Assembly: GCA_039802605.1 (NCBI GenBank)
Contig: JBDRWW010000008.1
Span: 1-64,000 of the forward strand
Length of the DNA stretch: 64,000 bases
Direction of reading: 5' to 3'
DNA from: a candidate division WOR-3 bacterium
Lineage (GTDB): Bacteria; Hydrothermota; Hydrothermia; LBFQ01
The position numbers are program-made. Below, one piece after another: positions 48,001-54,000 of the stretch (positions within the stretch are counted from its first letter, which is position 1; every line of letters starts with the position of its first letter).

Positions 48001-51000
48001 TACAAAATCCCCCACTTTACTCTCGTTATTCTCATCGTGGACATAAATTTTCTTGCGCTTTTTAATGTATTTGTGATATTTGGGATGCTCCACGATTCTA
48101 TAAACTACAACCACGCGGGTTTTGTTCATTTTATCGCTAACAACCACACCCCTTAAAACCTTCCTTTTACCCCTTTTAACCTCGCTCATAGTTTAACCCC
48201 CTTTTCCCTTAAAACCGTCAATACCCTGGCTATTTCCCTTCTGTAATGCCTTATAAGGTTTTTATCTTCAAGTTGCCCCAGTTTTCTCTTAAACCGGGCA
48301 TCCCTGAGTTGGGCCTTCAAAACCTTTAACCTTGCGGTTAGCTCTTCAACCTCCAATTGCCTCAACTCTCGTGCCTTTGTTGGTTTCATCGGAACACCTC
48401 CCCTGCCTTTACGATTTTCGTTTTAACGGGGAGTTTGGACGCGGCTACGCGTAGAACTTCCATGGCTTCCTCCTCTCCCACGCCGGTTATTTCAACTATG
48501 ACGGTACCCGGTTTTACGAAGGCAAACCACCCCTCAACATCGCCTTTGCCGCCACCCATCCTAACCTCTGCGGGTTTTTTGGTATAAGGTCTGTGGGGGA
48601 ATATCCTTATCCAGAATTTCGCCTTTTTGCCTATCCCCCTAACTATCGCCACCCTCATTGCTTCAATCTGATTTGAAAATATCCTGCCGTATTCTAGGCT
48701 CTTTAAACCGTAATCGCCAAACTCTACCTTGTTCCCACTTGTGGCTATACCTCTTAACTTTGGCCTATGCTGTTTCCTCCACTTAACCTTTCTGGGTTGC
48801 ATCATGGCAGTTCCTCCTCACCTCCCCTTAAAATATCCCCTTTATAAATCCAAACCTTAACGCCTATGGTTCCCCACTTTGTAAATGCGGTGTCGTAGCC
48901 GTAATCTATATTTGCCCTAAGGGTTTGGAGGGGTACCCTCCCCTTGATATACCATTCCTTTCGTGCTATTTCCGCTCCTGCTATCCTACCCTTTACCTGT
49001 ACCCGTATCCCCTTTGCCCCCAACCTCATAGCGGCAAAGACGGCCCTCTTCATTAACCTCCGGTGATACGCCCTCTGTTCCAGCTTTCTCGCTATGTTGT
49101 ACGCCACCAACTGGGCATCCAATTCGGGTTGTTGGATTTCCCTGTATTCCACCATAATTTCTTTACCGAATCTCTTCTTCAAGGCTTCCCTTAAACCCTC
49201 TATGCTCTGCCCCTGTCTACCGATTATAACCCCTGGCCTTGCCGTGTATATTATTGCGGTTGTGATGTTTGCCGTGCGCTCTATAACTATCCTTGAAATT
49301 TGGGGGTCGTTTGGTGAGGATTTGTAATAATCAACTATGAACTTCCTTATATGGTAATCTTCAAGGAGGTTTTGGACATATTCCTTTTTGGTTTCCGCAT
49401 ACCATGTGGATTGCCAAGGCCTAAAATAGCCGGTTCTTAAACCAATTGGATGCGCCTTCTGTCCCATTTATTTCCCCTCCTTTACAACAAATACCGTTAT
49501 ATGCGAAGTCCTCCTCCTAAAAATCCCGTTCCCCCCAAAACGGGCGGGTTTAACCGCGGGCTTCGGTATTTTCCACATGGGGCCTTTATCAACCTTAACC
49601 AAACCTATACGGAGGGTGGGGTAGAGGTCATCAACCCTTTTATCTGGTTCAAATTTATCCCTGTAAGAGGCCACGGCCGCCCTTAAAACCTTCCTCATAA
49701 TCCTTGCCCCTTTCTTCGGTGTGAATTGTAGGATATAATCGGCTTCCTGTACATTCATGTTCCTTATAAGGTCCGCTATGAGTTTCATCTTCTTTGGGGA
49801 TATTCTCGCCCTCCTCAATATGGCGATGCCACCCAACTTTTTCAATTCCGACCTGGGAAGCCTTCCAAAGTCCGTTATTTGGGTTTTCATTTCTTATCCA
49901 CCTTCTTTCCTTCTTTATCCTTATGGCCTCCGAATGTGCGCGTGGGGGCGAATTCTCCGAGGCGGTGTCCAACCATATCCTGGGTGATATACACGGGTAT
50001 AAACTTCCTACCGTTATGAACCATAAATGTCAAACCTATCATCTCCGGTACTATCATAGAAGCCCTTGACCAGGTTTTTATAGGGGTTTTGTCCCCCGTT
50101 TCCAAAGCCCTTTTAACCTTTTTCATCAATTTTGGATCAACATAAGGCCCCTTCTTTAAACTCCTACCCATATTTCACTCCTTTGAACCGTAACCTATTC
50201 TCCTCCTCTTGACTATAAACTCGGAAGAGATTTTCCTCGGATTTCTGGTCTTTACACCCCTTGCCAGCTTACCCCAAGGCGTCTTGGGTATTTTACCCTT
50301 TGTCCTACCCTCTCCACCTCCATGCGGGTGATCTACGGGGTTCATAGCCACACCCCTTACAGAAGGCCTCCTACCGAGCCACCTGCTCCTTCCAGCCTTT
50401 CCGAGAGTAACGTTTTCATGATCCACATTTGAAACTTGGCCAATGGTTGCATAACAATCGGGGTGGAATTTCCTGATCTCTCCGGACGGAAGTTGCACAT
50501 AAACCCAGTTTTCATCTTTTGAAAGTATAACGGCCTGAGTTCCAGCCGCTCTAACGAGTTGTCCGCCTTTCCCGGGGATAATCTCCAAATTGTGGATAGG
50601 TATTCCCTCCGGTATTCTACTCATCGGTAATGCGTTACCCGGCCTTATAGGGGCATCCGGACCGGATATAACTTCATCTCCCACCTTTATACCTTCGGGT
50701 GCCAATATGTACCTCTTTTCGCCATCTTTATACGCAACCAAGGCGATAAACGCGGTCCTATTGGGGTCGTACTCTATGGATTTTACAACACCTGGAATTC
50801 CGTTTTTATCCCTACGGTAGAAATCCACCAGACGGTACTTCCTCTTATTCCCACCTCCCCTATGCCTTACCGTTATCTTACCCTGATTGTTCCTCCCGGC
50901 CTTTTGCTTTTTGGGTTTTGTTAAAGATTTCTCGGGTTCTTCCTTTGTAATATATGCCGAGTAATCTATAACACTCATAAACCTCCTGCCGGGAGTTGTG

Positions 51001-54000
51001 GGTTTATACCTCTTAACCGGCATATTAAACCTCCAAGTCTATTTTATAACCCTCTTCAAGCGTAACTACGGCCTTCTTGTACGAAGATGTATAACCGACT
51101 TTTAGCCTATTCCTCAATCCCCTTTTCGGTTTGGGTTTAACTACCATGGTATTCACCTTCTTTACCTTAACCTTGAAGATCTTCTCGACCGCCTCTTTTA
51201 TCTGCCTCTTGTTCGCATCCTTGTGGACTATGAATATATACTTGTTTTGAGTATCCCTCAAATTTAAAGCCTTTTCCGTAATTACGGGCTCTATGATTAT
51301 ATCTTCATAAGTAAGCTTCATTTCAACAACCTCCCCTTCAAAACATCAATCGCACCCCTTTCTATGAAAACATGCTCGGACCAAAGGACATAATAGGTGT
51401 TCACCGTATCGGCTGGTAAAACTTCAACATCCTCTATGTTCCTCGCCGATAGGTAAAAGGTCCTGTTGGCGTTTTCCGGAACGAAAAGGATATTCCCATC
51501 AACCCCAACACTTTTAATCAGGTTGGCGACAACCTTGGTTTTAGGGGTTTCCATATTGAAGCTTTCCACGACATATATCCTGTTGTTTTGAGCCCTATCG
51601 CTCAAAGCCATTCTTAAAGCGAGGTTTTTAACCTTTTGTGGGAGTTTAATGTAATAATCCCTAGGCCTCGGCCCGTGCGCCTTACCGCCGCCTACGAATA
51701 TAGGGGCATACCTATCCCCATGCCTCGCCCTACCGGTGTGCTTCTGTGGCCATATTTTCTTGCGGGAACCCACAACCTCACCCCTTGTTTTGGCCTTGTG
51801 TGTTCCCTGCCTTTGGTTTATCAGATAAGCCCTTACGACTTCCCATAGGACATGCCTATTCGGTTCAATTCCAAAAATATCTTCGGGAAGTTCCATTTCG
51901 CCGGTTTTCTCACCGATTATATTGTAAACCGGTGCCTTCATATCACCCTCCCGTATTTATAAACCGCCGGCCTTACAAACACATAACCGCCCTTGTGCCC
52001 GGGAACGCCACCTTTTACGAGCAATAAGTTGTGTTCTGGGATTATCTTAACGAGTTTTAGGTTTAATATGGTGACGGTTTCGTTTCCGTAATGACCCGCC
52101 ATCTTTTTACCCTTCCAAACCCTTGCGGGGAATGTGTGTTGTCCTATTGATCCGGGTCTCCTGTGGAATTTTGAACCGTGAGCGGCGGGACCACCCGAGA
52201 AATCCCACCTCTTTATCACACCGGCAAAACCCCTTCCCTTTGTTTTACCCTGAACATCCACAACTTCTATCCCCTCAAAAACTTTTACATCCAAACCCTC
52301 ACCTATGGGGAATTTATCCAAGTCGTTGGTCTTTACCTCATAAAATTTGGTGGGATATAGTTCCCTTTCCCCCAATTGTTTTTTAACAAAACCCAAAACC
52401 GCCCTTTTTATCTTTTGAGGGGGTTTAAAAAAGTATCCCACTATAAGGGCGTTATAACCATCCCTTTCCTTTGTCCTATACCCCACAACTATGTTTTCGG
52501 GTATTTGCAAAACCGTAACGCCTACGGGTATTGCCAAGGGTTCCCCCTCGGGTTGAACATAAACTTGCGTCATACCCAACTTTTTGGCCAAAACCCTCAT
52601 TGAATTTACTCCTGCAATAACTTAACCTTAACATCCACGCCGGGAGGTATGTCTATCTGGGAGATCTTATCCATGGTTTCAGGTGTTGCGTTTGAGATTT
52701 CTATTAACCTTGCATGTCTCTTTAAAATGAAATGCTCTTGTCCCCTCTTGTCAATATGAGGACCCCTAATTACGGCAAATAGGGTTTTGCGCGTTGGTAG
52801 GGGGATCGGCCCGGATACCGTTGCCCCCGTGGATCTGGCTGTCACAACGATTTGTTTTGCAACCCTATCCAACACCGCGGGATCAAACGATTTCAGTTTT
52901 AGCCTAATCTTATCCATTATTCAATGATTTCGGTTATAACCCCGGCTCCAACCGTTCTTCCACCCTCGCGTATTGCAAACCTCAAACCCCTTTCTATTGC
53001 AACGGGATATATGAGTTCTACCTCCATCTGTACATTATCGCCGGGCATTGCCATCTCCCTACCGTCTGCGAGTTTGATGGTTCCGGTAACATCCGTTGTT
53101 CTGAAATAGAATTGGGGCCTATAACCGTTGAAGAAGGGGGTACTCCTTCCACCCTCTTCCTTTTTCAGGATATAAACCTCCGCCTTAAACTTCCTGTGAG
53201 CCTTTATTGAGCCGGGCTTTGCCAAAACCATACCCCTCTCAACATCATCTTTGCTAACACCCCTCAAAAGGGCGCCTATGTTATCACCGGGTATGGCCTC
53301 ATCCAAAACTTTGCGGAACATTTCTATGGATGTAACCACGGTTTTCAGGGGTTCATCGCGGAAGCCCACTATTTCAACCTCATCACCGGCTTTTAATATA
53401 CCCCTTTCAACCCTTCCCGTAACAACGGTTCCACGACCCGTAATGCTGAATACATCCTCTACGGCCATTAGGAACGGTTTGTCTATCTCCCTCACGGGCT
53501 CGGGTATATATTCGTCCAAGGCCTCCACGAGTTTAAGTATGGCCCCGGCCCCTATGGGATCATCAAAATTGGAAGGGTTTTGTAAGGCCCTAAGGGCAGA
53601 ACCCCTTATGACCGGAACCTCATCACCCGGATATCCGTATTGGTTTAATAGATCCCTAACCTCAAGCTCCACAAGGTCCAAAAGTTCGGGGTCATCAACG
53701 AGGTCAACCTTGTTTATAAACACCACTATCGCCGGAACATTTACCTGACGGGCCAAGAGGACATGCTCCCTTGTCTGGGGCATTACGGAGTCTACTGCGG
53801 AAACCACGAGAATAGCACCATCCATTTGTGCGGCTCCGGTTATCATGTTTTTGATGTAGTCCGCGTGCCCGGGGCAGTCTATGTGGGCGTAGTGGTATTT
53901 ATCCGATTCGTATTCCACATGCGCTATGTTTATCGTTAGGATTTTCGTTTCGTCTTTCCTCGCTATCTTTGCATCCGCCTTTGCAACCTCGTCGTAGCTC

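Follow-up and report, generated by a model that had tools for sequence, protein, structure and literature searches.

The uL22 protein encoded in this genome carries four additional residues at the tip of its tunnel β-hairpin, and comparison across WOR-3 shows a single insertion of these residues in the common ancestor of three families (f1, f2 and f4). The uL22 hairpin forms the constriction of the ribosomal exit tunnel, where macrolides and arrest peptides act. Changes of this kind, here a fixed insertion of four residues, are otherwise known from antibiotic-resistant mutants; as a wild-type state shared by three families, the insertion amounts to a natural experiment on what the constriction tolerates and why the loop has a fixed length. 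The window, i.e. the whole stretch of 64,000 nucleotides analysed, contains the following features.

47197..47508, minus strand: rplX, encoding uL24, which has a tunnel-exit loop
49468..49890, minus strand: rplV, encoding uL22, 140 amino acids (PF00237)
49510..49578, minus strand: tunnel β-hairpin of uL22, residues 105–127, 23 amino acids (E. coli residues 81–99, 19 amino acids)
49531..49560, minus strand: rewritten tip of the uL22 hairpin, residues 111–120 (E. coli Pro87 to Arg92)
49543..49554, minus strand: four additional uL22 codons, residues 113–116, placed by the anchors Pro87 and Gly91
51025..51321, minus strand: rplW, encoding uL23, 98 amino acids (PF00276)
51079..51147, minus strand: intra-tunnel loop of uL23, residues 59–81, 23 amino acids (E. 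coli 20)
51318..51941, minus strand: rplD, encoding uL4, which contributes the other constriction loop, unchanged in length

The uL22 protein matches PF00237 at 76.7 bits (curated cut-off 28), and uL23 matches PF00276 at 113.1 bits (cut-off 30.8). Counted from G-P to T-S-H, the uL22 loop has 23 residues against 19 in E. coli, and in place of a P-R-A-x-G-R-A type tip it has a rewritten one. The loop comparison confirms an in-frame insertion inside the hairpin, as the survey's finding had it; its placement within the tip is ambiguous, and the assignment to residues 113–116 depends on anchoring at Pro87 and Gly91 (E. coli numbering). Each clade genome has a single rplV, and the same motif occurs in 21 genomes and 33 protein clusters, which rules out chance or assembly error.

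In fold, S10 operon position and loop net charge (6.9 vs. 7.0) the protein resembles other bacterial uL22 (E. coli, T. thermophilus L22), and the anchors G-P, Pro87, Gly91 and T-S-H are retained in the clade. It differs from them in its four additional tip residues, in the replacement of Arg88 by Ala and of Arg92 by Gly, and in an aromatic residue before Gly-Gly; all solved uL22 chains whose alignments were displayed are without the four positions. The AlphaFold2 model consists of an α/β globule with a long β-hairpin, and the predicted fold matches uL22 with a Z score of 18.2 and an rmsd of 1.8 Å over 110 aligned residues. Strands 106–110 and 122–126 are retained in the model, and the loop between them (111–121) contains a short helix, with a pLDDT of 67 for block 111–120, i.e. 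low confidence at the tip. We note that uL22 also has an N-terminal extension of about 18 amino acids, which occurs in family f1; terminal extensions of uL22 occur in the same lineages.

The 23-residue loop was found in 21 of the 63 class genomes, comprising the order and one sister family: of the 19 order genomes searched, all 18 that gave a uL22 match (G008, 57% complete, gave none), together with all three genomes of f4, which is probably the family called f8 in the survey. The remaining 42 class genomes have 19 residues and none has the motif, in line with the restricted distribution claimed earlier. For uL22 and uL23 alike, loop lengths outside the class come from a few hundred top-ranked sequences; among the non-clade uL22 sequences listed, 140/140 have a loop of 19, and PMC9307626 describes uL22 loop length as well conserved across all domains. 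When a profile of the clade uL22 was searched against 1.84 billion representatives, just two reached E ≤ 1e-30, both of them clade members, and this search found the motif in no other phylum. Three records labelled Thermotogae or Thermotogota carry the f1 motif, with 76–80% identity to the uL22 described here; they are most probably WOR-3 bins under a wrong label. The carriers are one WOR-3 clade, close to Ca. Caldipriscus and including a hot-spring genus.

A 23S rRNA tree of 31 genomes, with the genes located by DNA search, groups f1, f2 and f4 with a support of 1.0, and the three families share 38 diagnostic 23S columns, the highest number among all 120 family triples; a protein tree built without the loops supports the clade at just 0.34. 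The rRNA copies in G196, G192 (contig C38) and G081 (C22) look like contaminants; those of G196 and G192 were retained in the counts of key bases and diagnostic columns, and a copy in G013 with 69% identity was excluded. Every one of the 42 class genomes with a normal-length loop has another residue in place of Arg88, so the loss of the RAR-G-RA tip predates the insert. The survey had the new tip standing in place of a RARGRA-type one: the rewriting holds, but the loss of that motif is the older event.

The tip is under purifying selection. It shows no amino-acid change across the 11 genomes of the family (11/11), and within f1 its codons differ at 0% of amino acids and at 47% of synonymous sites, with 12% amino-acid differences in the body of the protein; between families the corresponding amino-acid differences are 11–20% in the tip and 54–55% in the body. 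The inserted Lys-Pro is kept in 21/21 genomes of the three families. This retention speaks against neutral fixation in a fast-evolving ribosome, in which neither rRNA compensation nor functional change would be involved and the conservation would reflect a buried position. So does the near-invariant length of the loop elsewhere, which implies that inserts in uL22 are normally purged. Neutral fixation would fit the other oddities of these lineages (H46, H57–H59, the uL22 termini and the class-wide replacement of G2056), the viability of E. coli without the entire uL22 loop (PMC4937340) and the unchanged net charge; on balance we regard it as unlikely.

At position 746 of 23S rRNA, in the loop of helix 35, G is found in all 10 clade genomes in which this loop is assembled. 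Elsewhere it occurs in 4 of 103 genomes and in one further copy that is probably a contaminant; 159 of the 272 genomes surveyed fit neither H35 pattern. The ten are one evolutionary event, and as one of the 38 diagnostic columns G746 may reflect shared descent only. Outside the clade, at least three of the four genomes with G746 have a normal 19-residue uL22 loop (G086 and G141 of family f7, and G070). A preprint (bioRxiv 10.1101/2024.10.31.621234) reports G746 for Thermotogae and Dictyoglomi and lists 746 as a macrolide/ketolide-binding residue; unlike in those groups, the G of the clade is derived, within a phylum that mostly has another base. In S. aureus, a two-residue deletion at the uL22 tip shifts H35, U746 and A1614 (PMC6685948).

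U746G and the uL22 insert co-occur, and the uL22 tip and 23S position 746 are a concrete protein–rRNA pair open to testing. The explanation that we somewhat favor is an ancestral tip insertion, possibly by duplication, that was accommodated by helix 35 and then structurally locked in. On the low-confidence tip of the model, the insert would have made the turn larger and bulged, as a Pro/aromatic/Gly-Gly loop, with the strands kept in register. It may have been tolerated because the rRNA it faces, the loop of helix 35, also changed on this branch, with U746G as compensation. Purifying selection would then have fixed the tip, the hairpin presumably serving as a scaffold for 50S assembly and the tunnel wall, by analogy with E. 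coli, where the loop contributes to assembly (PMC4937340). A constriction reshaped in this way should alter macrolide and ketolide sensitivity and the response to arrest peptides. Two other substitutions were considered and dropped: A752U is present in 5 of the 10 clade genomes yet common throughout WOR-3, and replacement of G2056 by A or C is class-wide rather than specific to the clade. We also observed that H46 is shortened in f1 and that the H57–H59 region is lost in genus g3; helix 59 is gone in one SRP-less genus.

Indels in the uL22 hairpin are known from macrolide resistance: a repeat insertion of 5 amino acids in R. typhi (PMC13119893), a 3-amino-acid insertion in D. radiodurans (PMC6685948; PDB 4WFN), the deletion ΔR88-A89 in S. 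aureus (PMC6685948) and a 27-nt repeat in S. aureus (as reported in PMC5995244). The clade insert is in the same loop, of similar size, and possibly arose by the same short-repeat mutational route, which raises the possibility that a tunnel-binding antibiotic (of the macrolide, ketolide or streptogramin type) selected for it as a resistance change before it became fixed. It resembles an xKPx repeat: a dipeptide repeat at lag 4 (K-P) is present in 16 of 17 distinct clade loops. Lag-4 repeats also occur in 39 of 100 normal loops, so this signal is no higher than background, and divergence at synonymous sites is too great to test for a repeat on the DNA; from the protein sequence, tandem duplication is only suggestive. 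The drug-binding role listed for 746 would suit selection by an antibiotic, but A2058, A2059, G2057–C2611 and U2609 are unaltered in the clade, as is A1614. The resistance indels come from selected mutants, and the R. typhi insertion was lost without the drug (PMC13119893), whereas the clade insert is wild type, conserved and fixed over three families, which include hot-spring organisms presumably without known exposure. The one culture paper searched for the class (PMC12285271) gives no data on erythromycin or other antibiotics. We consider selection by an antibiotic improbable.

A structural cause is more improbable still, whether the extra residues fill the void of a lost neighbor (bL32, bL34 or a stretch of rRNA) or make the ribosome more heat-stable. 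One f4 genome, G071, gave no bL34 match; it also lacks yidC, the neighbor of the bL34 gene in three further panel genomes, which makes an assembly gap the likely reason. A search for bL32 was positive in 59 of 64 class genomes, with each of the three clade families represented, and bL34 was found in this genome and G006. Trigger factor is likewise present, as are SecA and YidC, and the absence of bL32, of bL34 or of trigger factor was rejected as the cause. The clade has no clade-wide 23S deletion in H35, H73, 1595–1625 or 2575–2630. The 23S is GC-rich in f1 and genus g4 (0.63–0.65), but the clade range is 0.55–0.65 and family f6, outside the clade, reaches 0.63–0.65 with a normal loop; heat adaptation was discarded, as 23S GC showed no pattern.

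The uL23 loop has a different history: uL22 changed once and uL23 in steps. Counted from V-N/R-T to K-K-A, it has 23 residues here against 20 in E. coli, about three more, as the survey had found; the suggestion that this genome's insert is a residue shorter than that of its relatives was mistaken, both loops having 23. Seventeen of 18 order genomes have 23 residues and one has 25, and across WOR-3 the lengths run stepwise (20–21–22–23). Long natural uL23 loops, such as that of Marinimicrobia, likewise have a basic insert at the tip; according to PMC9307626, the Marinimicrobia loop (+8) was the source of the 23+L ribosome, which in E. coli changed co-translational folding, and inserts of at least four residues occur in 1257 of 14,104 bacterial uL23. 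The clade loop is only +3 (+5 in one genome) and ordinary within common variation. Contact between uL22 and uL23 is via rRNA.

The lineage lacks SRP, as stated earlier. The Ffh M domain (PF02978) was found in 0 of 47 class genomes at least 90% complete and in 118 of 141 others; the best PF00448 match in the class has E = 2.8e-7, and the weak match in this genome is RadA. By sequence, class genomes are without Ffh and FtsY, and 4.5S RNA (RF00169) was found in 0 of 4 class genomes tested and in the one WOR-3 control (1/1). This makes a large, apparently free-living WOR-3 clade without Ffh, FtsY and 4.5S RNA, and because the class has a cultured member, strain sy37 (PMC12285271; class assignment, PMC12542636), SRP-free membrane-protein targeting can be studied in it. 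Literature searches, with most subscription papers outside their coverage, found no published account of SRP loss or of the uL22 insert in WOR-3.

The longer loops could offset SRP loss by sensing or slowing hydrophobic chains so that SecA, SecY or YidC captures membrane proteins. Every carrier of the insert is without Ffh, and within WOR-3, uL23 loops longer than 20 were seen only in SRP-less families (f1, f2, f4, f5, f8, f11 and f13), the loop being 20 in all 13 read from SRP-bearing families; the loss of helix 59 in an SRP-less genus points the same way. E. coli Ffh and SecA each touch the uL23 loop tip (PMC6692507). However, the SRP-less group extends to further families outside the class, and the loss is several nodes older than the insert on the protein tree. 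A 19-residue uL22 loop is kept in 42 SRP-less class genomes and in all 10 genomes read from outside families (f13, f19, f23, f26, f27 and f28), and uL23 is normal in 27 SRP-less class genomes. SRP loss covers a far larger clade with normal uL22 (insert in 21/63 class genomes and 0/10 outside) and so does not explain the insert, contrary to the link implied by the survey, which had itself noted that the loss is the wider of the two. Moreover, the constriction, where the uL22 tip sits, is distant from the binding sites of targeting factors, and many bacteria have inserts in uL23. We therefore doubt that the loops offset SRP loss. It is similarly doubtful that the uL22 tip, G746 and the uL23 loop act as a unit that sets the pace of hydrophobic nascent chains or retains them inside the ribosome, a ribosome-intrinsic, SRP-free targeting of membrane proteins refining the older SRP-less state of WOR-3. 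On the explanation favored above, the uL23 loop grew separately, and the prior absence of Ffh would at most have permitted this; E. coli Ffh extends into the tunnel as far as this loop.

Of the other tunnel loops, that of uL4 has 21 amino acids in all 34 WOR-3 rows covering it, and a change in its length was rejected as a candidate. The tunnel-exit loop of uL24 has 10 amino acids in the genus of this genome, 11 in other WOR-3 and 12 in E. coli.

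Both tunnel proteins are encoded in the S10 operon, which lies on the minus strand and is ordinary in its makeup within the window:

49468-49890, minus strand: rplV, encoding uL22, S10 operon member
51025-51321, minus strand: rplW, encoding uL23, S10 operon member

The genome is placed by its named near relatives in WOR-3, class Hydrothermia, near Ca. Caldipriscus: its uL22 is 88% identical to a record of that name, and WOR-3 names also occur among the homologues. In family f8 the S10 operon is broken between rplB and rpsS (for example at locus L054 of genome G100), with uL23 encoded elsewhere.

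Counted between the anchors G-P and T-S-H, the uL22 hairpin is 23 residues long in this genome compared with 19 in E. coli, which bears out the survey's finding of four additional residues and, as shown next, of their limitation to the order plus one family. A uL22 match was obtained in 63 of the 64 class genomes. The loop has 23 residues throughout f1 (11/11) and f2 (7/7), which together form the order (18/18), and in f4 (3/3); in the remaining 42 it has 19, so that the long form occurs in 0/42. We refer to f1, f2 and f4 as the clade. Among WOR-3 genomes outside the class (25 read of 130 matched), the length is 19 in 23, 20 in one and 21 in one, the extra residues of the last two lying where the first strand begins, away from the tip. 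The homologue sets were drawn in order of score with the clade profile and do not amount to a census of bacteria: the 120 listed of 1629 matches, with 58 loci and E. coli, gave 39 rows of 23 residues, every one with the clade motif, and 140 rows of 19, scores falling at the edge of the clade from 148 to 109 bits; only two of 1.84 billion representatives matched at E ≤ 1e-30, both clade members; and the best 150 representatives plus E. coli gave 19 residues in 142 rows, 22 in two, 20 in two and three partial or misaligned rows. The insert is a real and natural variation, apparently undescribed, of a ribosomal element that is otherwise nearly invariant; no report of the uL22 insert was found in the literature covered, outside which most subscription papers lie. 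Within that literature, the accessible text of a WOR-3 paper (PMC12285271) mentions neither antibiotics nor secretion, and that of PMC13338714 covers 20 bacterial ribosome structures. PMC7203096, PMC8614978, PMC8758062, PMC8321541 and PMC9297842 contribute nothing decisive in the text covered.

Three unrelated uL22 representatives (P0208, P0244, P0262) carry 1-3 added residues where the first hairpin strand begins; other natural uL22 inserts do exist, albeit rarely. Three proteins (P0031-P0033) have a 23-residue loop of a fourth kind, and perhaps represent a deeper clade branch absent from the compared genomes. Outside the loop, uL22 also has terminal extensions (window 49840-49890; loci L013-L019): one at the N terminus in f1, for which a helix is predicted, and one of about 25 residues at the C terminus in f2.

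Because Pro87 and Gly91 (E. coli numbering) are both retained, the four extra residues can be placed between them. Arg88 is already substituted across the entire class, normal-length loops included, and the rewriting of the tip therefore started earlier than the insert. The AlphaFold2 model keeps both hairpin strands intact and predicts the tip as a bulge of 11 residues that includes a short helix (pLDDT about 67); by structure comparison, the remaining fold is that of uL22.

A 23S tree of 31 genomes groups f1, f2 and f4 with support 1.0, and this triple has the most diagnostic 23S columns among 120 family triples; a protein tree of 958 columns, both loops excluded, recovers the group with a support of only 0.34. 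At pair positions within f1, the tip codons show 0% amino-acid and 47% synonymous differences, while amino-acid differences between families are 11-20% in the tip and 54-55% in the uL22 body. There was a single uL22 tip insertion, strongly conserved afterwards by selection, and we consider pure neutrality unlikely. The tip can be read as two xKPx units, as a 12-base duplication would leave, but lag-4 repeats also occur in 39 of 100 normal loops, so such an origin is a lead only.

The tunnel wall was read by aligning the genome's own 23S gene to E. coli rrlB:

G000:C3:21524-24549 (contig C3 of this genome): 23S rRNA gene

In S. aureus, a two-residue deletion in the uL22 tip shifts H35, U746 and A1614 (PMC6685948, accessible part), which makes 746, in the helix 35 loop, the right neighbour to examine. 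It is G in all 10 clade genomes with the site assembled and in 4/103 outside the clade, 113 of 272 phylum genomes matching either loop pattern; a further G746 stands in an additional G081 copy, which matches an f2 sequence exactly and is probably a contaminant. The change occurred on the same branch as the insert. Against a pairing of the two, it is one among 38 diagnostic 23S columns, all on that single branch. G746 also coexists with a normal uL22 loop in three genomes (G086, G141, G070), and is reported in Thermotogae and Dictyoglomi in the accessible part of a preprint (bioRxiv 10.1101/2024.10.31.621234). Since the proteins bL32 (59/64 genomes) and bL34 (4/5) were both found, no neighbour has been lost, and we give little credence to an insert that fills a void or answers to heat. 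A 1148-residue open reading frame (window 36724-40170), which we take to be reverse gyrase-like, would suit a hyperthermophile.

On balance we favour an ancestral tip insertion that became fitted to helix 35 and was then fixed as structure. The bulged tip would pack against the helix 35 loop, a Phe in it may substitute for the lost Arg contacts, and the tip may have been retained because the hairpin guides 50S assembly. In E. coli, deletion of the uL22 loop halves growth and disturbs assembly, with elongation barely slower (PMC4937340, accessible part). By analogy with selected uL22 mutants (accessible parts of PMC6685948; PMC13119893), the constriction would be changed in shape, and responses to macrolides and arrest peptides shifted. 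An antibiotic origin of the insert itself is improbable; A2058, A2059, U2609 and C2611 are unaltered. So is A1614. A further selected-mutant study (PMC5995244) reportedly provides another analogy for an altered constriction.

The uL23 loop has 23 residues here and 20 in E. coli, about three more, as the survey had it. It has 20 in 27 class genomes (f3, f6, f7, f9, f10, f12), 21 in f5 (6/6), f11 (2/2), f8 (4/4 found) and f13 (1/1), 22 in f4 (2 read), 23 in 17/18 order genomes and 25 in G013; contrary to the survey, the present insert is therefore not one residue below its relatives. The loop lengthened in steps. According to the accessible part of PMC9307626, uL22 loop length is well conserved in all domains, whereas uL23 inserts of four or more residues occur in 1257 of 14,104 bacterial sequences. 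Thus, of the two loops paired in the survey, uL22 is the unusual half and is real, uL23 is ordinary, and the implied link to SRP fails its test, as described below.

The lineage does lack SRP: 0/47 class genomes of at least 90% completeness carry an Ffh M domain, as opposed to 118/141 others, and 4.5S RNA was detected in none of the four class genomes searched (0/4) but in a WOR-3 control. SecA and trigger factor are present in 5/5 and YidC in 4/5 panel genomes. Only weak SRP54-type GTPase matches occur in the class, the best at E 2.8e-7: the genome's own is RadA, neither Ffh nor FtsY, and two in f5 fit a PEP-CTERM-associated ATPase best. Matches in f19 and f23 (E 1e-40) fit FlhF best. The protein tree unites the class with f13, f19, f23, f26, f27 and f28 (support 0.95), which points to a single old loss in this group, the f27 matches being left unassigned. 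Ffh, FtsY and, in the genomes searched for it, 4.5S RNA are absent from this large WOR-3 clade. These SRP-less genomes are 1.2-3.3 Mb in size, some 99-100% complete in 3-4 contigs, and retain SecA, YidC and trigger factor. No report of SRP loss in WOR-3 was found in the literature covered, most subscription papers lying outside it, and the accessible text of a WOR-3 paper (PMC12542636) mentions neither SRP nor secretion. The SRP-less clade is possibly of greater interest than the tunnel loops.

SRP-less families outside the class keep a 19-residue uL22 loop in 10/10 read, so SRP loss is, as the survey allowed, far wider than the insert, and older; the timing of the insert is unconnected to it. 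For uL23, SRP loss may have been permissive, because the E. coli loop is contacted by Ffh and SecA (PMC6692507, accessible part) and, within WOR-3, loops above 20 residues were seen only in SRP-less families (SRP-bearing families, 20 in 13/13 read). Against this, 27 SRP-less class genomes kept the normal loop. That the loops compensate for SRP loss we regard as unlikely.

Several other features of the exit region and 23S rRNA were observed. In genus g3 (loci L114 of G001 and L117 of G005), E. coli 1436-1556 spans 47-48 nt compared with 108-145 elsewhere, the H57-H59 region, helix 59 included, being gone. Helix 59 belongs to the tunnel exit and serves SRP as a docking site. Helix 46 (locus L079 on G000:C3, E. 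coli 1198-1247) is a 22-23 nt hairpin in 3/3 f1 genomes and 49-50 nt in all others. G2056 is replaced class-wide by A (f1, f5, f8) or C (other families), C2612 is mostly retained, and 2597 is A in f1, f2, f4, f5 and f8. In many class genomes (loci L112, L113, L115, L116, L118, L119, L121 and others) the 23S gene is interrupted, near position 2030-2060 of ours, by about 690-790 nt of intervening sequence (more in G119 and G091), probably a group I intron; the present genome has none. On G000:C3 the 23S gene is followed immediately by the start of secA and is not linked to the 16S gene (near 80900-81900). In uL24 (window 47197-47508), the exit loop has 10 residues in the genome's own genus (this genome, L132, L133); the E. 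coli loop has 12, and 28 other WOR-3 rows have 11.
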